64,000 nt of DNA from an uncultured Actinomycetota bacterium (GCA_963807005.1 CAWDZK010000006.1:172612-236611), one strand, 5' to 3'; shown: positions 1-9,992, numbered from the stretch's first letter. The notes: generated from the sequence alone by a model not told the origin. Numbers and translations: made by a program.

Positions 1-142
1 CAGACCAGAGCCGTACCGACCAGGAGGACCCATGACCGCCACCGACCACACAGCGACCCGGGCTCAGCACCGCGTGCGGACCTGCTTCTGCTGATCCCAG
101 CGCAGGGGACGACGCCGCGGCACACGGCCTACCGGTACATCC

Positions 143-722: not shown

Positions 723-2453
723 TCAGGAAGAGGCGGCCGGTACCCGCCAGACCGCGGACGTCCCGCCGTCCGGGCCGGCCTGACGCATCTCGAAGGACCC
801 GCCGAGGGACACGGCCCGCTCGGCCATGTTGCCCAGGCCGCTGCGACGGCCGGAGTCGACGTATCCGACGCCGTCGTCGGTCACGATCAGCACCACCTCG
901 TCGCCGGTGTTGAGGCGGACGACGACCGACGTGGCCTGGGCGTGACGCGCGACGTTGGACAGCGCCTCGCGGAGGACGGCGAGCAGGTGCGGCCGCAGCT
1001 CGGGCCGGATCGCGCTGTCGACCGGTCCCTCGGTGTGCAGCCGGGGGGCGAAGCCCAGCGCCTGGGTCGCGACTGACATTGCCTCGCCGAGCTCGGCCCG
1101 GAGGTCGGAGGACGTCTCCGGCGCGGAGAGCTCGAAGATGGTCCGGCGGATGTCCTTGATCGTGGCGTCGATGTCGTCGACGGCTCCGGTGATCCGGTCG
1201 GTCACCTCAGGTCGTGTCGTCATCCGTGCGGCGTTGTCCAGTGTCAGCCCGACCGCGAACAGCCGCTGGATCACCAGGTCGTGCAGGTCGCGACCGATCC
1301 GGTCCCGGTCCTCGAAGACAGCGAGCCGGCCACGGTCTTCCTGTGCCTGGGCCACCTGCAGGGCCAGCGCCGCCTGTTCCGCGAACGACTCCAGCAGCAC
1401 GATGTCGCTGTCGCGCAGCCCGGAGTCGGGGGCCCACGTCATCAGCAGCATGCCGTCGGCGGGGCCTTCACCGCCCAAGGGGAGCAGCAGCAGGTGATCG
1501 AGCAGGTCAGTGCGCCGCGTCGTGACGAGCCCGAGCTCCGCCAGACCGGCCGCGACGTCGGAGCCGCTGAGCAGGACGGTCCTGCCCTCGTCGAGGACCG
1601 GGGCGGCGAACGACTCCGCGTCCAGCGACAGGGACTCGGCCGGCTTCCTGGCCGCGTCCCCGGAGACGACCTCGATGGCCAGCTGGCCGCCCTCCCGCCG
1701 GAGCAGGACGGCGGCCGAGTGGGCGCCCGCGACCTCCCGCGCCCGGTCGGCGACCAGCTCGAGCGCCTTGGCCTGCTCGACCTGTCCCAGCAGCGCCGCG
1801 GTGATCTCCGCAGCTGCCTCGAGCCAGCGCTGGCGAAGCGCTGACTCCTCGTACAGCCGGGCGTTCTCGATCACCACGCCGGCTGCAGCGGCGAGCGCGA
1901 TCACGATCTCCTGGTCCTCGATGGTGAAGTTCCCACCGGACTTCTTCTCGGTCAGGTAGAGGTTGCCGAAGACCTTGTCCCGGATGCGCACCGGGACACC
2001 GAGGAAGGTGTCCATCGGGGGGTGGTTCGGCGGGAACCCGTAGGACTGAGGGTGGTCCGCCAGCCGCGTCAGCCGGAGCGGCTCGGGGGAGTCGATGATG
2101 ACGCCGAGGATGCCGTGCCCACGGGGCAGGTCGCCGATCGCTTCGCGCTGCTCGTCGGTGAGCCCATGGGTGATGAACTGGCGCAGCCGTCGGTCCGTGC
2201 CGACCTCGATGACGCCGAGCGCGCCGTACCGGGCGTCGGCGAGCTGGCAGGAGACCCGCACGATGCGCTGCAGGACCGAGTCCAGGTCGAGGTCCGCGGC
2301 GATGCCGACGACGGCGTCGAGCAGGACCCGCAACCGCTCCTGACTGTCCAGGACGTCCCCGACGCGCGTCAGCAGCTCAGAGAGCAGCTCGTCCAGCCGG
2401 GCCCGGGCGAGGGGAGGCAACGCAGCGGACGGCCTCGCGTCGCCGCCGGCCAT
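723..2453 (-). CDS. GAF-domain sensor histidine kinase of the DosS/DevS/DosT type (GAF-GAF-HisKA_3-HATPase_c). The ORF tracker extends to 2705; the ATG at 2453 (MAGGDARP) is the preferred start.
   Basis: Two GAF-like segments are followed by HDLVIQRLFAVGLTLD (HisKA_3 H-box) and a C-terminal ATPase (N-box LSNVARHA, G-box DDGVGY..GLGNMAERA). At 577 aa it is the same size as Mycobacterium tuberculosis DevS. Confidence 0.75.
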   Translation of the reverse strand: MAGGDARPSAALPPLARARLDELLSELLTRVGDVLDSQERLRVLLDAVVGIAADLDLDSVLQRIVRVSCQLADARYGALGVIEVGTDRRLRQFITHGLTDEQREAIGDLPRGHGILGVIIDSPEPLRLTRLADHPQSYGFPPNHPPMDTFLGVPVRIRDKVFGNLYLTEKKSGGNFTIEDQEIVIALAAAAGVVIENARLYEESALRQRWLEAAAEITAALLGQVEQAKALELVADRAREVAGAHSAAVLLRREGGQLAIEVVSGDAARKPAESLSLDAESFAAPVLDEGRTVLLSGSDVAAGLAELGLVTTRRTDLLDHLLLLPLGGEGPADGMLLMTWAPDSGLRDSDIVLLESFAEQAALALQVAQAQEDRGRLAVFEDRDRIGRDLHDLVIQRLFAVGLTLDNAARMTTRPEVTDRITGAVDDIDATIKDIRRTIFELSAPETSSDLRAELGEAMSVATQALGFAPRLHTEGPVDSAIRPELRPHLLAVLREALSNVARHAQATSVVVRLNTGDEVVLIVTDDGVGYVDSGRRSGLGNMAERAVSLGGSFEMRQAGPDGGTSAVWRVPAASS

Positions 2454-2590
2454 AGGGACCTCCCGGCCTCGTGAGCTGTCGTGGCTGTCACCGAGCGTAA
2501 TCCGCTGCACCCGCCGGTGTGGGACCAACGGCCCTGACCGGTCGACCTGCGGCCGCCTAGCGTCGGGGACGAGGCAGCGGGAGCTGCCGA

Positions 2591-3043
2591 GTGGAGGTGT
2601 CTGCCGTGTCCGTCCAGGAGCCGACCGACCGCAGGGGGCTGCGTGTCCTGCCCTTCGACGAGTGCCTGCTCCTGCTCCGCAGGGCCGGAGTGGGACGGGT
2701 GGCATTCGTCCATGACGGTGAGCCCGAGGTACTGCCGGTGACGTTCGGGATGGACGGCACCGCGCCGGTCTTCCGCACCTCGTGGGGGTCCAAGTTCGAC
2801 GGGGCCGCCAGCGGCGGTCTGGTGGCCCTCGAGACGGACTGGGTCGACGAGCCGGGCGGGCGAGCGGGCAGCGTCGTGGTCAAGGGCACCGCTGCCGTCG
2901 ACTACGACGAGGACGCGATCGCTCGCTACGAGGCTCTCGGCGTGCCCATCTGGGTGCCGGCCGGGTCGGAGATGTTCTGGGTCCGGGTCCAGCCCGAGAG
3001 CGTCACCGGCCGCGAACTCGTGCTGCCGTCAGCGTCGCGCTAG
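2591..3043 (+). CDS. Pyridoxamine 5'-phosphate oxidase-like (FMN/F420-binding split-barrel) family protein with a GTG start.
   Basis: The 150-aa ORF has the typical PNPOx-like N-terminus (LPFDECLLLLRRAGVGRVAF...EVLPVTF) and is divergent from the kinase gene. Confidence 0.5.
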   Translation: MEVSAVSVQEPTDRRGLRVLPFDECLLLLRRAGVGRVAFVHDGEPEVLPVTFGMDGTAPVFRTSWGSKFDGAASGGLVALETDWVDEPGGRAGSVVVKGTAAVDYDEDAIARYEALGVPIWVPAGSEMFWVRVQPESVTGRELVLPSASR

Positions 3044-3244
3044 GGAACGAGCGCTCCCGGCGGGCTTCTGTCCACGATGGTGGCGGGAGGGACCGGCGCC
3101 GCTTAGGTGGCGTCACGAGGTGCACGGTGGGCGCGGGAAGCGCTGCTCTGTGCCTGTGGTTAGGTCCCTTCCGCCACCTCCATCAGACACCAGCCGGGGC
3201 GCTCTGACCAGGGTCGTTCGGCCCGCGTTGGTGCCGCTCGGCGG

Positions 3245-3757
3245 TCACACGAAGATGATCTGGGCGCCGCTCGTCATCTCGATGAAGTCGGCCGCGCTGA
3301 TGATGTCCTCGACACCGTCGTAGAGGTCGTCCATCGCGAGGTGCTGCATGTCCGCGGACATCCGGCAGGCCCACAGGTGGCCGCCGGAGTCGACGATCTG
3401 CTCGAGGAACTCGGGTACCTCCGGCACGCCGATCTCCGCGATCGACTTCTTCAGCTTCGAGGTCGCCAGCGTGGTCATCCAGGGCAGTCCACCGAGGCCC
3501 TGCGGCATGTGGGTGGCGGTGTTGCCGAGCATGGTGAACTTGAGGTCGGCCATCGTCTTCTTGTTGATCAGCTCGAAGCCCCAGAACGTGAAGAACATGT
3601 GGGTCTCGATGCCCTCGCCGAGTGCGGCGTTGGCCAGCACCAGGCCCGGGTAGGCCATGTCGAGGCTGCCCTTCGAGCAGATGATGGCGAGCTTGCGGCC
3701 GGTCTCCTGCTCGCCGAACTGCGGGACGATCGGTGCGGTGGACGTGGTGCTGGTCAT
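3245..3757 (-). CDS. DsrE/DsrF-like sulfur-relay family protein. The alternative GTG at 3784 would overlap the stop of the upstream gene.
   Basis: The motif KLAIICSKGSLDMAYPGLVLANAALGEG carries the conserved active-site Cys of DsrE-like proteins. An RBS-like GAGGAAGGA precedes the ATG at 3757. Confidence 0.65.
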   Translation of the reverse strand: MTSTTSTAPIVPQFGEQETGRKLAIICSKGSLDMAYPGLVLANAALGEGIETHMFFTFWGFELINKKTMADLKFTMLGNTATHMPQGLGGLPWMTTLATSKLKKSIAEIGVPEVPEFLEQIVDSGGHLWACRMSADMQHLAMDDLYDGVEDIISAADFIEMTSGAQIIFV

Positions 3758-3780
3758 CGCGGGTCCTTCCTCGGTCGCGG

Positions 3781-4101
3781 TCACACGCAGCCGCGCGGCT
3801 TGGGCAGCCCGGCGACGTAGGCCATCTTCTTGGCCGGCTTGACGGGGAAGAGCGCGAACAACGTGCGGGTCGGCACGCCGGCGCCCGTCGTCACCCGACG
3901 GAGCGTCGCGGTCTCGCCGTGCTCGAGGAAGTCCGAGCGCAGGAACGCGAGGATCCGCAGGTGCTCAGGGGTGAGCTCGATCCCGATCTGGTCTGCGAGC
4001 ACCCGGGCCAGGTCCTCGTCCCACTCGTCGTAGGAGGTGAGAAAGCCTTCGGCGTCGACGTGCACGTCGTGCCCGGCAATGGTGGTGACGGTCATGCTCA
4101 T
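3781..4101 (-). CDS. TusE/DsrC/DsvC-family sulfur-relay protein of the single-cysteine (TusE-like) type.
   Basis: The 106-aa protein ends in the family-diagnostic AGLPKPRGCV and has no second Cys about 10 residues upstream. An RBS GGAGG sits 6 nt before the ATG at 4101, which overlaps the SQR stop in ATGA. Confidence 0.75.
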   Translation of the reverse strand: MSMTVTTIAGHDVHVDAEGFLTSYDEWDEDLARVLADQIGIELTPEHLRILAFLRSDFLEHGETATLRRVTTGAGVPTRTLFALFPVKPAKKMAYVAGLPKPRGCV

Positions 4102-5399
4102 GCCTCCGTGTTCTCGGGGTTCTCGAGCTGCTTGCCGGCCATGCTCATGTTGGCCGGCAGGGGTAGCGATCGTCCGGGCAGCAACAGGTTCCAGTAGGCC
4201 CAGCGGAACGCGAGCTTGCCCCAGTGGTTGACCCGGGTCTCCTTCAGCAGCCGGAACGGTCCGACGTGCGGCACCGGGTAGGTACCGGGGAGGGGCTGGG
4301 TGTCGTAGTTGAAGTCCAGCAGCATCGCCCGGCCGTCGCCGGACTCGACGAAGCAGTTGGCGTGGCCGTCGAACTCGTGGGTCATCGGTCGCCCCGCGAT
4401 GTGCTCGAGGAAGTTCTCGACGAAGACGTCGATCGAGAAGTGCGCCACCGACCCCGCCTTGGAGGTGGGGATGTCGGACGCGTCGCCGAGAGCGAAGACG
4501 TCGTCGTACCCGGTCGCCAGGCTGGTACGCCGGTCCACGGGGACGAGGTTGAGCTCGTCCCCCAGCCCGGACTTCGCCACGAACTCGGCACCGAGGTTCG
4601 GGGGGACCGTGATCAGCAGGTCGAACGGAAGGGTGCGGCCGTCGTACGAGCTCAGCGTCCGTGCCTCGGGGTCGACGGCGTCGACGACGAAGTCGGGCTC
4701 GAGCCCGATGCCCCTCGTGGCGAGCAGGTGCCCGAGCCGCTGGGACGCAACAGGTTTGGTGAACGCGCCGTCCAGCGGCGTGACGTAGGTGAGCTCGACG
4801 GCGTCCCGGTGCCCGAGCCGGCGGAACCGGTCGTCGAGCAGGAACGCGAGCTCGAGCGGGGCGACGGGGCACTTGATCGGCATCTCAGCCACGTGGACGA
4901 GGACCCGACCGCCGGTGAAGCCGTTGAGCGCCTCACGCAGGGCGATGCTGCCGTCGATCGTGTAGAAGTCGTGGGCGCTGCGGCGCCAGACCCGGTCGTC
5001 GAGCAGCCCGGGGACCTGCTCGGGACGCGGGGTGACGCCGGTCGCGACCACCAGCTGGTCGTAGTCCAGCCGGGTCCCGTCGACGAGCACCACCTGGTGC
5101 TCGTCGGTGCTCACGTGGTCCACCTCGCCCCGGCGCAGGTCCACGCCGTTGACGAGGCACGCCTCGACAGGGCGCTCCAGCTGCTCCCTCCGGTAGCCGC
5201 CGAACGGCAGGAACAGGTAGCCCGGCTGGTACCGGTGCACGGCCTCCGGCTCCACGACCACGATCTCCCAGCCGGCATCCAGCCGCCGGCGGAGCCGGTT
5301 GGCGACCATGGTTCCTGCGGTGCCCGCCCCGAGCACGAGCACGGTGCGAGCACCAGGGCCCGGTCCCGGGCGGCTTGTCTCGTCAGAACCGTGGGACAT
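4098..5399 (-). CDS. FAD-dependent pyridine nucleotide-disulfide oxidoreductase, sulfide:quinone oxidoreductase (SQR)-like.
   Basis: VLVLGAGTAGTMVANRL is a Rossmann GxGxxG motif. The 433-aa size, the conserved Cys residues, the translational coupling to TusE/DsrE and the 17-nt overlap with the upstream USP all fit an SQR. Confidence 0.7.
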   Translation of the reverse strand: MSHGSDETSRPGPGPGARTVLVLGAGTAGTMVANRLRRRLDAGWEIVVVEPEAVHRYQPGYLFLPFGGYRREQLERPVEACLVNGVDLRRGEVDHVSTDEHQVVLVDGTRLDYDQLVVATGVTPRPEQVPGLLDDRVWRRSAHDFYTIDGSIALREALNGFTGGRVLVHVAEMPIKCPVAPLELAFLLDDRFRRLGHRDAVELTYVTPLDGAFTKPVASQRLGHLLATRGIGLEPDFVVDAVDPEARTLSSYDGRTLPFDLLITVPPNLGAEFVAKSGLGDELNLVPVDRRTSLATGYDDVFALGDASDIPTSKAGSVAHFSIDVFVENFLEHIAGRPMTHEFDGHANCFVESGDGRAMLLDFNYDTQPLPGTYPVPHVGPFRLLKETRVNHWGKLAFRWAYWNLLLPGRSLPLPANMSMAGKQLENPENTEA

Positions 5400-5883
5400 C
5401 AGGCACCTCGATCTGGAGCTCGGACGGGTCGGCGTGGACGGTGACGAGCTGGGGCGCCGGTGGCGGGACCGCCACGACGGGGCACGCGGCGTGTGAGAGC
5501 ACGTAGTGGCTGATCGAGCCGTGCAGTACCCGGCCCAGTCCGCGGTGCTCGTGCGTACCGACGACCAGGACGCAGTCGTCGTCCGCGGCCGCCGCAGCGA
5601 CCAGGGTCGGTCCGGGCGCGCCCTCGATGACTTCCAGCCGCCAGGTCACCGAGCTGTCGTCGCGGTCGAGTCGGGCCGTCCACTGCTCGGCCGCCTTGCG
5701 TGCGGCCTGCTCCTCCTCGTGCCGGATCTCTGCGACCGGCACGTAGGCCGACGCGGCGTCCGGTCGCCAGGTGTGGACCACGCGCAGCGTGCGCCCGGTC
5801 GTCCTGGCGAGGTCCCAGGCCCAGACCAGAGCCTGCGCTGCAGCGTCCGACTCGTCCAGTCCGACGACGATGGTTGCGCTCAT
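5383..5883 (-). CDS. Universal stress protein (UspA family).
   Basis: The 166-aa protein carries the typical UspA ATP-binding C-terminus (VLVVGTHEHRGLGRVLHGSISHYVLSHAACPVVAV) and is first in the operon with SQR. Confidence 0.7.
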   Translation of the reverse strand: MSATIVVGLDESDAAAQALVWAWDLARTTGRTLRVVHTWRPDAASAYVPVAEIRHEEEQAARKAAEQWTARLDRDDSSVTWRLEVIEGAPGPTLVAAAAADDDCVLVVGTHEHRGLGRVLHGSISHYVLSHAACPVVAVPPPAPQLVTVHADPSELQIEVPDVPRF

Positions 5884-6075
5884 GCCACCTTCTCTCCCTC
5901 ACGGCCAGCGTGGTGGCCCGGCGGCACTTGCCGGTACCGACCAAGGGCCCGCGTCCGCAGGACCACCGACCGGGGGCCGGCGACGGACCAAGGGCCTCTT
6001 GCCCGTCGGCGGCGCGGGCGGGAGGGTGGGGGTGGGCCCGGATCGGGTCCGACCCGGAACGTGGAGGAGGCTGCC

Positions 6076-6279
6076 GTGCGCGCAGAGGTCGGCGACCAGA
6101 TCATCATCAGGAGCGCCCACGTCGACGAGCCGGTCCGGGACGGCGAGGTCCTGGAGGTACGGGGACCGGACGGCGGCCCGCCCTACCGGGTGCGGTGGGC
6201 CGACACCGGCCACGACGCGCTGTTCTTCCCCGGGCCGGACGCCACCGTGCACCACCTGCACGAGCCGGGGAAGGGCTGA
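6076..6279 (+). CDS. DUF1918-domain small protein with a GTG start.
   Basis: The 67-aa protein begins VRAEVGDQIIIR...RVRWADTGHDALFFPGPDA. A perfect RBS GGAGGAGG sits 6 nt upstream of GTG 6076, and the long upstream ORF extension is an in-frame artifact. Confidence 0.55.
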   Translation: MRAEVGDQIIIRSAHVDEPVRDGEVLEVRGPDGGPPYRVRWADTGHDALFFPGPDATVHHLHEPGKG

Positions 6280-6343
6280 CGGCTGCCGAGGAACGGGCCG
6301 CGGGCCGGCCCGCCCCTCGACAGCGACTGTTGTCGCGGAGCTG

Positions 6344-7339
6344 TCAGCAGCTCAGCGCGCGGGGCCTCGACCGCGGGCTGGAGCACGTGTCCTGACCGGC
6401 GCCACCGCGGATCTGGTCGACTCCCGGCCCTCCGACGAGGACGTCGTCGCCGCCGCGGCCCTTGATCAGGTCCTCGCCGTAGCCGCCGTAGTACCGGTCC
6501 GCGTCCAGCGACGTCACCTTGTCCCGGAGGTCGTCGGCACCCTTGTTGCCGTACCCGACGTCGCTGCCCGTGTAGCCACGGACGATGTCATCTCCGGGCC
6601 CGCCGGCCATCCGGTCGTCGCCCTGACGCCCGTACAGCCGGTCGTCGTCCGGCCCGCCCTCCAGGGTGTCGTCCCCGTAGCTGCCCCAGAGCGAGTTCAG
6701 CCCGTCCTGGCCCCGCAGGGTGTCGGCCCCGCTGCCGCCGTGGAGGAACTCGACCGTGCCGGCGGTCCGCGGGTCGTCGGCCGGCACGCCGACGTTGTCG
6801 CCGCCGAGGATCAGGTCGTCGCCTGCGTCGCCGTACAGCTTGTCGGTGCCGCCCTGGCCGTCGATGCGGTCGTCGCCGGCGCCGCCGTGGACGACGTCGA
6901 AGCCGGTCGTCACCGCCTCGGCGTTGTCGCTGGTCTTCTGCAGCGAGTTGTCGCCCGCGCAGATGACGTCGTCGCCACCCAGGCCGTCGATGGTGTCGCC
7001 ACCGCCGAGCCCGAGGATGACGTCGTTGCCCGGGGTGCCGGTCAGCGTGTCGGCCTTGTCGGTGCCCAGGATGGTCGGGACCAGGCCGAAGCAGGTGAGC
7101 GGCACGGGAGTTCCCGTCGGGCTGGCGGTCGGAACAGTCGTCGGCGTGCCGGTCGGGCCGCCGGTGGCGGTCGCGGTGCCGGTGCCGTTCGGCGTGGTCG
7201 CGGCGGGCGCGGCGGGCGCGGCGCCGGTGGCGGCGCCGCTGGTCGTGGCCCCGACGAACAGCGCGGCGGTGCCGAGCAGGCCCGCCGCGCCGGTGGCCAG
7301 CAGCGTCGAGCGCAGGGGTGCGAAGGACTGTCGTGACAT
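6344..7339 (-). CDS. Secreted calcium-binding protein with hemolysin-type (RTX, GGxGxD) beta-roll repeats.
   Basis: The signal peptide MSRQSFAPLRSTLLATGAAGLLGTAALFVGA precedes a Thr/Pro/Ala-rich linker and at least 10 nonapeptide repeats (GGGDTIDGL, GGDDVICAG, GAGDDRIDGQGGTDKLYGDAGDDLILGGD...). Confidence 0.6.
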   Translation of the reverse strand: MSRQSFAPLRSTLLATGAAGLLGTAALFVGATTSGAATGAAPAAPAATTPNGTGTATATGGPTGTPTTVPTASPTGTPVPLTCFGLVPTILGTDKADTLTGTPGNDVILGLGGGDTIDGLGGDDVICAGDNSLQKTSDNAEAVTTGFDVVHGGAGDDRIDGQGGTDKLYGDAGDDLILGGDNVGVPADDPRTAGTVEFLHGGSGADTLRGQDGLNSLWGSYGDDTLEGGPDDDRLYGRQGDDRMAGGPGDDIVRGYTGSDVGYGNKGADDLRDKVTSLDADRYYGGYGEDLIKGRGGDDVLVGGPGVDQIRGGAGQDTCSSPRSRPRALSC

Positions 7340-8698: not shown

Positions 8699-9394
8699 GT
8701 GACGACCGGCAAGGCGGCCCGCCAGCACCCTGGTGAGTCGCGGTACCCCGCGGCGGCGGCCGTCGTCGTCGCCGTCGCGCTCTACGCACTGCTGCCCAGC
8801 GCCCTGCAGATCGGGCCTCGCTTCCTGGTGCCGGTCCTCGAGGCCGCGCTCTTCGTCCCGCTCCTGGTGGGCAACCCGTCCCGGATGACCCGCCAGACGC
8901 GAGCACTGCGCGTCGCGTCCATCGCACTGATCCTGCTCATCGCCGCCACCAACACCGTCGCGCTCGGGTTGCTGGTGGATGAGCTGGTCCACGGCGCGGC
9001 CAAGGGGGGCGGCGCACTGCTGCTCGGCGCGGCCCAGGTCTGGCTCACGAACGTCATCGTGTTCGCCCTGGCGTTCTGGGAGCTCGACCGTGGCGGCCCG
9101 GTGCTGCGGACCCGCGCCCCACGGGCCGACCTCCCCCCGGCGGACTTCAGGTTCCCGCAGGACGAGGACCACGACGCCGTCGACGAGGTCGCGTCCCGGT
9201 CAGCAGCAAGATCCGACTGGGCCCCCGGGTTCTTGGACTACCTCTACGTCTCGACGACGAACTCCTCCGCGTTCAGCCCCACCGACACCATGCCGCTCTC
9301 GCACCGGGTCAAGCTGCTGATGGCGGTCCAGTCCGTCTCCGCACTGATGCTGTCCGTGCTCGTCATCGCCCGCGGGGTCAGCCTGCTGGGCTGA
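8699..9394 (+). CDS. DUF1345-family membrane protein. The start at GTG 8699 is preferred because the tracker ATG at 8651 lies inside a terminator-like hairpin.
   Basis: Several TM helices are predicted, and the acidic C-terminal region has the DUF1345-like segment FLDYLYVSTTNSSAFSPTDTMP. Confidence 0.45.
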   Translation: MTTGKAARQHPGESRYPAAAAVVVAVALYALLPSALQIGPRFLVPVLEAALFVPLLVGNPSRMTRQTRALRVASIALILLIAATNTVALGLLVDELVHGAAKGGGALLLGAAQVWLTNVIVFALAFWELDRGGPVLRTRAPRADLPPADFRFPQDEDHDAVDEVASRSAARSDWAPGFLDYLYVSTTNSSAFSPTDTMPLSHRVKLLMAVQSVSALMLSVLVIARGVSLLG

Positions 9395-9992
9395 CCGGCT
9401 CCGGCGGCCGGCCGTGCACGCTGACCGCGTACCCGGCCCGCGGCTCCCACGGGTCGCCCTCCCAGGTCGACAGCCGGCGCACCGGCCGGAGCCCGGCTGC
9501 CGCGCACCACTCGTCGTACGCCGCGATGTCGAGCACCGCTCCTGCGGGCGGCAGGTGCGCGCGGTCCAGCCCGAAGCCGGCGACCAGCAGACCCCCGGCC
9601 GCGACGTGCGCGGCGACCCGCGCCACCACGACCGGCTCGGTCCCCTCGGCGACGAGCGGGACGATGTTCCCCGCCATCACCACCACGTCGTACGGCGGAT
9701 CGCCGGCTGCCAGCAGGTCGAGGCTCGCCAGGTCGGCCTGCACCCAGCGCAGCCCCGGAGCGCGTTGCCGGGCGACCTCGAGCATCGACGCGTCGAGGTC
9801 GACACCGGTGCAGTCGTAGCCGAGCTCGGCGAGCCGGATGGCGACCCGGCCGGTCCCGCACCCGGCGTCCAGGATCCGCGACCCGGGCGGCACCAGGGCC
9901 GCGCAGAACGCCGCCTCGCCGTGCACGTCGGCGCCCGTGGCCGCTCGCTCGTCGAAGCGCCGGGCGTAGTCGCGTGCACCGGCACCTCCCAT
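9378..9992 (-). CDS. Class I SAM-dependent methyltransferase.
   Basis: Motif I ILDAGCGTGRVAIRLAELG and post-I DLDASMLEV are present. It is divergent from hglS. Confidence 0.65.
   Translation of the reverse strand: MGGAGARDYARRFDERAATGADVHGEAAFCAALVPPGSRILDAGCGTGRVAIRLAELGYDCTGVDLDASMLEVARQRAPGLRWVQADLASLDLLAAGDPPYDVVVMAGNIVPLVAEGTEPVVVARVAAHVAAGGLLVAGFGLDRAHLPPAGAVLDIAAYDEWCAAAGLRPVRRLSTWEGDPWEPRAGYAVSVHGRPPEPVSPAG

Follow-up and report, generated by a model that had tools for sequence, protein, structure and literature searches.

What becomes of the sulfane sulfur produced by a sulfide:quinone oxidoreductase (SQR) that is encoded together with two candidate protein sulfur carriers? The question is raised by an operon in a 64,000-nucleotide stretch of DNA from an uncultured Actinomycetota bacterium (GCA_963807005.1 CAWDZK010000006.1:172612-236611; hereafter the window), whose minus strand carries at positions 3245-5883 four co-directional open reading frames (ORFs): a universal stress protein (USP), an SQR, a DsrC/TusE-family protein and a DsrE-type protein. 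An earlier note, made from the sequence, had described these as a four-gene sulfide/persulfide relay, and ORF positions together with Pfam searches bore out the coordinates and families that it gave. We consider it rather probable that the locus specifies a cytoplasm-facing, membrane-associated type III SQR with two dedicated protein sulfur carriers under DosS/DosT-DevR-type control. In the mechanism that we propose, H2S would be oxidised at Cys177/Cys349 of the SQR, with electrons passing via FAD to (mena)quinone, a step that follows from membership in the enzyme family; the enzyme-bound sulfane sulfur would be taken off by the penultimate Cys on the flexible C-terminal arm of the DsrC-like protein, and would then be exchanged with Cys131 of the DsrE2-like protein, which is probably trimeric. 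The sulfur would in this way leave the SQR as a protein persulfide on the cytoplasmic side, and not as free polysulfide.

Homologues of the SQR were collected in a scan of species-representative genomes, which gave 80 loci at 48-84% identity (81 with that of the window), and their neighbours were compared by all-versus-all clustering of ORFs and on Pfam-annotated contigs. A DsrC-like gene lies downstream of the SQR gene on the same strand in 75 of the 80, followed in 72 by a DsrE2-like gene. Of the five exceptions, three run into contig ends and the other two, both from Ca. Saccharicenans, truly lack the genes; the SQR-TusE-DsrE string, the breadth of which the earlier note had left to be checked, is thus found in 75 of 77 evaluable loci. 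The order is kept down to 48% SQR identity, with median intergenic gaps of 27.5 and 22 nucleotides (nt) within the triad, and recurs in Actinomycetota, Acidobacteriota, Gemmatimonadota, Thermodesulfobacteriota, Myxococcota, Chloroflexota, Verrucomicrobiota, Deinococcota and Proteobacteria, far beyond chance. Cultured carriers of the triad include Salinispora arenicola, Aquipuribacter, Actinoplanes, Actinotalea and Nocardioides. Given that all other gene families recur in about 11 loci at most and that a USP lies upstream of SQR in four of the 81 only, the conserved unit comprises three genes; judged by this distribution, the USP is a lineage-specific add-on, and it accompanies a DosR-like regulon. 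The four-gene module first described shrinks to a three-gene core, in which the linkage between SQR and carriers stands by synteny and fusions, and its implied standing as an actinobacterial and unreported module has to be given up, since it spans many phyla and an operon of this kind from Methylacidiphilum is already in print. A literature search that reached few subscription journals found nothing published on the triad, on the fusions, on the DosR link or on the DsrC-like protein with its single Cys.

The recurrent extras near the triad are DUF1641, rhodanese, sigma-54 activators, ArsR and OsmC. A sigma-54-dependent activator is encoded upstream in about 10 non-actinobacterial loci and a rhodanese downstream in about 9. 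The locus of Salinispora arenicola (L082) has no DosR-type context; a divergent regulator of the ArsR/SmtB type (6091-6399, minus strand) shows a weak likeness to BigR (44 bits against a cutoff of 155), and an OsmC-like gene (9102-9503, plus strand) directly follows the triad.

Natural fusions connect the same families. A full HMMER scan with the DsrC-like protein returned 1126 cluster representatives at E<=1e-3, and 41 of the best 150 of these are at least 250 amino acids (aa) long. When ten DsrC-like cluster representatives were run against Pfam, DUF1641 was found joined to DsrC in all four checked representatives of about 270-330 aa, whereas the two representatives of 562 and 581 aa proved to be SQR joined to DsrC. 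The one of 562 aa stands for a cluster of 263 sequences, whose named members are Mobiluncus species (up to 58 contigs); the type III SQR model aligns over its full length with the N-terminal part of this protein (449.7 bits), and TIGR03342 with the C-terminal part. An independent SQR-DsrC fusion is seen in a proteobacterial metagenome-assembled genome (MAG; L069). DUF1641-DsrC fusions directly follow SQR in L057, L059, L064 and L065, and DUF1641 is either fused to the DsrC-like domain or encoded separately between SQR and the DsrC-like gene in about 10 loci in all. DUF1641 proteins serve as scaffolds, to which enzymes that reduce quinone are bound, and they channel the quinone (PMC13524794; PDB 9a63). 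Together the SQR-DsrC and DUF1641-DsrC fusions argue for physical coupling of the DsrC-like domain to SQR, and are the strongest available evidence that this domain might work physically on the enzyme. Synteny across phyla and natural fusions strongly back the view that SQR and the two carriers are functionally linked; that the carriers act as such, and that SQR passes its sulfane sulfur to them, we infer from these sequence comparisons. An apparent SQR-DsrC fusion at 71% identity (P0241) was rejected as a frameshift artefact that leaves the SQR frame after DFNYDTEPLTG. Mobiluncus, an anaerobe of the human vaginal tract, carries two tandem pairs of an SQR-DsrC fusion and a DrsE_2 gene, with a glycerol-3-phosphate dehydrogenase gene between them (L087/L088, 2295-8284).

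Examination of the flavoprotein shows that it passes the cutoff of 525 bits of NF049943, the NCBIfam model for type III SQRs, over model positions 2-406 of 406 (score in Table 1). Pfam recognizes only a generic Pyr_redox_2 domain (59.6 bits), and models of CoA-disulfide reductases, whose cutoffs lie above 450 bits, reach 17-26. Among solved structures, the best matches are those of human SQOR (3e-35), of flavocytochrome c sulfide dehydrogenases and of type I/V SQRs, and Cys177 (MPIKCPVAP) and Cys349 (GHANCFVE) align with the catalytic C201/C379 of human SQOR. Both residues are present in 81 of 81 SQR homologues, with Cys81 not conserved; the two catalytic Cys are the sole conserved pair in type III SQRs (PMC13047784, PMC10989961). 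The glycines of the FAD motif (G24-x-G26-x-x-G29) are likewise invariant. An AlphaFold2 model (predicted local distance difference test score, pLDDT, 76; predicted template-modelling score, pTM, 0.80) was matched by Foldseek to human SQOR with template-modelling (TM) scores of 0.81-0.88, to type I SQRs with 0.73 and to type II NADH dehydrogenase (NDH-2) with 0.62. In the C-terminal region, where type III SQRs would have the amphipathic helices of monotopic membrane binding, N391, H392, K395, Y402 and W403 are conserved, and a helix is predicted at 398-406 between flanks (347-396 and 413-433) with pLDDT below 50. On this profile, alignment and fold evidence the flavoprotein is a type III SQR and not an NDH-2 or CoA-disulfide reductase, in agreement with the first identification of the enzyme as an SQR.

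The type III model carries the name "selenoprotein subtype", which is misleading in that NCBI applies it to Cys forms too, e.g. that of Salinispora. No in-frame TGA indicative of selenocysteine occurs in the SQR gene of the window or in its 80 genome homologues, and codon 177 specifies Cys. A metagenomic contig (L086, Ga0075331_1011709; 1-29, minus strand) encodes MPIK-TGA-PVAP, with an in-frame TGA at the codon for Cys177, as would fit both a selenocysteine form and the NCBIfam name; a metagenome scan for this motif returned this single contig, at whose edge it lies and where a sequencing error is possible.

Reading of the sequences indicates no obvious signal peptide in the SQR, DsrC-like or DsrE2-like proteins. 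Two papers from 2026 are at odds as to whether the active site of type III SQRs faces the cytoplasm or the periplasm. The near-obligatory linkage or fusion of SQR to carriers without an obvious signal peptide argues for a cytoplasmic face, at least in this clade.

The DsrC-like protein ends, as first described, in AGLPKPRGCV, and Cys105, the penultimate residue, is its only Cys. The terminal Cys is found in 74 of 74 complete homologues. Alignment to solved DsrCs places a Tyr at the CysB position, and CysB, ten residues before CysA, is absent from the C-termini of the SQR-linked homologues. Among the best 150 of the 1126 representatives, 107 keep the terminal Cys, and 7 of these 107 have the Cys-X10-Cys pattern of true DsrC. 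The protein passes the cutoff (53.5 bits) of TIGR03342, which covers the TusE/DsrC/DsvC superfamily, and fails the TusE equivalog NF008562 (64.4 bits against a cutoff of 191); its solved relatives are DsrCs at 1e-12 to 7e-16 (A. fulgidus DsrC, 6.7e-16), as against 5.5e-7 for the one solved sulfurtransferase. Thus its earlier label as TusE-like fits the Cys pattern but not the equivalog model or the structural relatives, which place it closer to DsrCs. Neither recurring dsrAB-like neighbours nor Tus genes (TusB/C, MnmA) were seen in the neighbourhoods of the 81 loci. Multiplied versions of the domain also occur: P0245 (541 aa) consists of five tandem DsrC domains (Pfam, 412 bits) and P0272 (249 aa) of two (233 bits).

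The third protein of the triad had been called DsrE-like, which holds for its type. It belongs, however, to PF13686 (gathering score 25 bits; Table 1) and not to the classical DsrE family PF02635, to which it scores only 25.6 bits, and it stays below the cutoff of the DsrE2 equivalog NF047629 (97 against 210 bits). Its nearest solved structure is DsrE2B (2QS7, 2e-11). The Cys of IICSKGS, Cys27, had been taken for the active site; it turns out to be clade-specific: 10 intact homologues have V, A, M or I in its place, and the solved relatives lack it. It is instead Cys131 in HLWACRMS (Cys140 if counted from the GTG start) that is invariant; this residue is kept in all intact homologues and aligns with the Cys of the solved DsrE2B/DsrE3A proteins 2QS7, 3MC3 and 3PNX. 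No tusA, shdr or dsr genes lie near the DsrE2-like gene of the window, and a protein search with its product returned close actinobacterial relatives only.

Upstream of the operon are three DosR-like boxes (5936-5949, 5965-5978 and 5983-5996), 50-115 nt from the USP start. The motif GGGNCCTWSGKCC has 10 matches in the 17-kb L001, the public contig containing the window, against 1.57 expected (0 of 200 shuffles), with matches at the promoters of the USP-SQR operon, of the divergent PPOX/kinase pair and of a divergent regulator/USP pair. Similar boxes are also found upstream of the operon in L002-L004, L008 and L023. The GAF-A domain of the kinase encoded next to the PPOX gene matches the haem domains of DosT (2VZW, 7.6e-50) and DevS (2W3D, 8e-44), and a regulator at L001:15285-15965 matches DevR (3C3W) at 1.6e-73, as against 6e-44 for the next family. 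The regulator gene lies 9.9-10.6 kb from the 3' end of the operon, just past the left edge of the window, beyond which L001 also encodes another USP, a nitroreductase, PPOX proteins and an acetyl-CoA hydrolase. A DosS-like kinase adjoins the triad in 11 actinobacterial loci, accompanied in 10 of these by a PPOX-class gene, a typical companion of dormancy regulons. These features suggest that the operon, with the triad co-transcribed behind the USP, is probably under DosS/DosT-DevR-type control via the DosR-like boxes, and that it is probably expressed under hypoxia or gas (NO/CO/H2S) stress. The finding that M. tuberculosis DosS binds H2S (PMC9062744) offers one rationale for this wiring of the triad.

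Several observations weigh against the reading of a cytoplasmic SQR that passes its sulfur to two carriers within such a regulon. The AlphaFold2 model of the SQR is poor in the surroundings of Cys349 (residues 347-396). The boxes are named DosR-like for their likeness to what we take to be the mycobacterial consensus, and their motif is not enriched in the 64-kb window as a whole (9 matches against 6.6 expected). Neither the 19 kb to the right of the operon nor the left part of L001 contains a gene for a persulfide dioxygenase, a rhodanese or a sulfite exporter, and no further sulfur genes lie in those 19 kb. The order proposed for the carriers is tentative, because in characterised relays sulfur flows from the DsrE-type to the DsrC-type protein. 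Methylacidiphilum has the same operon yet still forms elemental sulfur, and induction of the operon in its sulfide-adapted cells is only 1.7-fold (PMC10205796). The DsrE2B of Metallosphaera cuprina, the one DsrE2-type protein assayed, was inert to six sulfur compounds and took no sulfur from DsrE3A or TusA (PMC4175335).

The same gene linkage could serve other functions. The carriers might build or repair the redox centre of the SQR, by inserting the bridging sulfur of a Cys-S-S-S-Cys or by resolving an over-sulfurated dead-end enzyme, with polysulfide or elemental sulfur being released by the SQR itself. A trisulfide cofactor is reported to be essential in human SQOR, the closest solved relative; Methylacidiphilum still makes elemental sulfur with the same operon; and one-to-one synteny and fusion suit a dedicated maintenance partner as well as they suit an acceptor. 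However, stoichiometric fusion together with the need for a second carrier is not what one would expect of a maintenance factor, nor is there an indication that type III SQRs use a trisulfide, and we regard this explanation as unlikely. By analogy with Dsr systems, in which DsrC-family arms are the protein-bound substrates of DsrAB/DsrK, the flavoprotein might rather act on carrier-bound sulfur, as a quinone-linked oxidoreductase for a DsrC-like persulfide or mixed disulfide that might run reductively under hypoxia. The tethering in the SQR-DsrC fusion resembles that of a substrate-carrier domain and the operon sits within a putative hypoxia-type regulon, but menaquinol is, by textbook potentials, too weak a reductant for persulfide or polysulfide. 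Moreover, free sulfide is what the characterised type III SQRs cited in PMC10205796 oxidise with quinones. With a single Cys in the carrier, an intramolecular trisulfide or disulfide is also impossible, and this function would appear improbable.

A biosynthetic role is a further alternative, with the carrier pair supplying sulfur for thio-cofactors, Fe-S clusters or thionucleosides in the manner of TusBCD-TusE and the SQR serving as a sulfide-scavenging entry point. The DsrC-like protein does show the single-Cys pattern of TusE, and DsrE-type and DsrC-type proteins cooperate in tRNA thiolation; against this, it misses the TusE equivalog cutoff by a wide distance (64.4 against 191 bits), and the genes that recur in the 81 neighbourhoods are not TusB/C, MnmA or other biosynthetic genes but the DUF1641, rhodanese, sigma-54 activator, ArsR and OsmC families, which makes this role very improbable. 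That the FAD enzyme is an NDH-2 or a CoA-disulfide/persulfide reductase with unrelated neighbours, as its generic Pfam assignment and weak N-terminal matches to models of these enzymes might allow, is scarcely credible in view of the type III model that it passes, the far lower scores of the CoA-disulfide reductase models, a fold that ranks SQR above NDH-2, the invariance of both SQR Cys, and neighbours that are conserved and even fused.

Returning to sulfur transfer from SQR to the carriers as the preferred reading, we advance a more general proposal tentatively, as a possibility with somewhat less than even chances: type III SQRs would be the first SQRs with a dedicated protein acceptor, in which the swinging arm of a DsrC-like protein with one Cys, either free or joined to the C-terminus of the SQR or to a DUF1641 quinone-channel scaffold, pulls the sulfane sulfur out on the cytoplasmic side and hands it to a DsrE2/DsrE4-like trimer. 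In the window this machinery would be wired to a haem DosS/DosT-DevR system, and since mycobacterial DosS binds H2S, it could form a closed circuit for sensing and removing sulfide within a dormancy regulon.

The arrangement of the locus is summarized in Table 1. The four genes had been described as translationally coupled at every junction, and they are tightly packed under either choice of starts, although the junctions differ in part from that description. The 17-nt overlap between the USP stop (TGA, 5385-5383) and the SQR start (ATG 5399), read from the sequence, stands, because this ATG is conserved, is preceded by a Shine-Dalgarno sequence (GAGGTG) and is the sole in-frame start upstream of the conserved R18-T19, which match the N-terminus MKRTV of L002, the closest homologue that lacks a USP. 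Both the overlap and the ATG within the USP C-terminus (EVPDVPRF*) are kept in L003 and L004. GTG 5342, the SQR start favoured by a gene call on third-position GC content, was rejected on these grounds. The ATGA overlap between the SQR and DsrC-like genes (ATG 4101, TGA 4100-4098) exists; however, a DsrC-like start at 4095, 2 nt past the SQR stop, is likelier, because GGAGG lies 7 nt before it and 1 nt before ATG 4101, and because the homologues and the European Nucleotide Archive gene call have 104 aa. A DsrE2-like start abutting the DsrC-like stop did not hold up: GTG 3784 overlaps that stop (GTGTGA), but ATG 3757, with GGAAGGA ahead of it and a 23-nt gap to the DsrC-like gene, appears to be the better start, giving the 170-aa product called in other loci.

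The first 19 codons of the SQR gene (5343-5399) have a third-position GC content of 0.61, against 0.94 in the remaining gene, and the corresponding N-terminal extension is present only in relatives in which a USP overlaps the SQR start. This extension seems to be recent and was perhaps made when the USP joined the operon.

Table 1. Features of the SQR operon and its surroundings, in window coordinates
Feature	Position	Strand	Support
DosS/DosT-type sensor kinase, GAF-GAF-HisKA_3-HATPase_c, haem-type GAF-A	723..2491	-	Pfam domains
Palindromic DosR-like box between the divergent PPOX and kinase genes	2521..2534	.	GGGACCAACGGCC / GGGCCGTTGGTCC, match on both strands
PPOX-class (pyridoxamine 5'-phosphate oxidase-like) protein	2606..3043	+	PF12900, 76.7 bits
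Convergent intergenic region with long nested hairpin	3044..3244	.	inverted repeats, minimum free energy -106.7 kcal/mol
DrsE_2 (DsrE2/DsrE4-like) protein, 170 aa (179 aa from GTG 3784)	3245..3757	-	PF13686, 106.2 bits
Single-Cys DsrC/TusE-family carrier (putative), 106 aa (ATG 4101) or 104 aa (ATG 4095)	3781..4101	-	PF04358, 99.9 bits; TIGR03342, 74.6 bits
Type III SQR, Cys form, 433 aa	4098..5399	-	NF049943, 570.8 bits
USP, first gene of the operon, 166 aa	5383..5883	-	PF00582 (Usp), 95.1 bits
Three direct DosR-like boxes, putative operator of the operon	5936..5997	-	GGCCCTTGGTCSGT and one variant

Scans for intrinsic terminators and sigma-70 promoters gave no match, as is expected in an actinobacterium of 70% GC, and an Rfam scan of 2500-6500 gave chance-level matches only, with none in the convergent spacer between the operon and the PPOX gene. 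The hairpin in this spacer is formed by the arms 3056-3070/3184-3198 and 3079-3094/3163-3178 (z = -4.1) and has no T-tract; it may be a bidirectional terminator of the T-tract-less kind for the operon and the PPOX gene, or something else. On the other side of the operon, a small DUF1918 gene (6076-6279, plus strand) is divergent from the USP gene and shares the spacer that bears the boxes, and beyond it lies a gene for a 331-aa RTX-type calcium-binding repeat protein (6344-7339, minus strand; HemolysinCabind, 120 bits). At 143-640 on the plus strand, a 165-aa multi-pass membrane protein is encoded, which has no significant Pfam or NCBIfam match; an identity as DoxX, its sole Pfam match (E = 0.1), was dropped. 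This gene may belong to the same regulon as the operon, since L001 has a DosR-like box about 200 nt ahead of it.

The triad is of a known but barely studied kind, found here in a lineage-specific regulatory setting; what is new are the DosR-like boxes on the operon and the DosS/DosT- and DevR-type regulators nearby. If the carriers accept the product of the SQR, sulfide detoxification would yield a protein persulfide and not free polysulfide, with consequences for models of reactive sulfur species, of sulfur storage and of downstream oxidation. The linkage of the triad also bears on the dispute over the membrane side of type III SQRs. The Mobiluncus fusion and the culturable hosts Salinispora arenicola, Actinotalea and Nocardioides make the carrier question directly testable, and a DosR-type wiring would extend the link between H2S and DosS in M. 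tuberculosis to a dedicated sulfide-oxidising output.

Among known systems, the DosS/DosT-DosR regulon of M. tuberculosis shares with the window and L001 a kinase with a haem GAF-A domain, a DevR orthologue, USPs, a nitroreductase and PPOX genes. The palindromic GGGnCC...GGnCCC boxes of the window and L001, where motifs are the basis for the proposed regulation, appear to resemble those of the mycobacterial regulon. We know of no SQR/carrier operon in the mycobacterial DosR regulon. About 10 related loci, with DUF1641 next to SQR or fused to the DsrC-like domain, recall the DUF1641 scaffold complexes (Ndh-Ncp/YjlD-YjlC, Huc and ForCE; PMC13524794), the partner enzyme SQR being a quinone-reducing flavoprotein from the superfamily of NDH-2; the locus of the window has no DUF1641 gene, and no complex of SQR and DUF1641 is described in that paper.

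The DsrEFH-DsrC and TusBCD-TusE systems share with the window a DsrE-fold protein with one Cys and a DsrC-fold protein with a Cys on its C-terminal arm, and persulfide passes in them between the DsrE-fold and DsrC-fold partners. The window differs from DsrEFH/TusBCD in encoding a single PF13686 protein and not a heterohexamer, and from the DsrC/TusE relays in that its DsrC-type protein is without CysB and fails the TusE equivalog, and that the partner enzyme is SQR and not DsrAB or MnmA. Archaeal proteins of the DsrE4 group, with Mcup_1724 of Metallosphaera cuprina as prototype, are encoded downstream of SQR, and a role in the detoxification of reactive sulfur has been proposed for them (Liu et al. 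2014, PMC4175335; Tanabe et al. 2024, PMC11094781). The window thus shares with them a DsrE-family protein downstream of SQR, with the DsrC-like gene lying between the two in the window; DsrE4 is archaeal, with no DsrC-family partner mentioned in the text consulted, and the likeness is one of gene position, the window protein being nearest, among solved structures, to the DsrE2B 2QS7.

A close parallel in gene content is the operon MFUM_v2_0219-0221 of Methylacidiphilum fumariolicum SolV, with a type III SQR, a "TusA-homologous" carrier and a putative DsrE2 (Schmitz et al. 2023, PMC10205796). It has the same three-gene order as the window, with the type III SQR first and the DsrE2-like protein last, but no USP and no DosR-type context, and its middle gene is described as TusA-like. 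Its modest, 1.7-fold rise in sulfide-adapted cells speaks for a connection of such operons with sulfide; in a verrucomicrobial MAG (L054), DsrC-like and DsrE2-like genes follow SQR as they do in the window. Human SQOR, a type II SQR and the closest solved structure, shares with the SQR of the window the catalytic Cys and, going by the predicted model, the fold of a monotopic flavoprotein, at about 24% identity. SQOR passes its sulfane sulfur to small molecules, and we know of no SQR that has a protein acceptor; the locus in the window suggests that such an acceptor exists.

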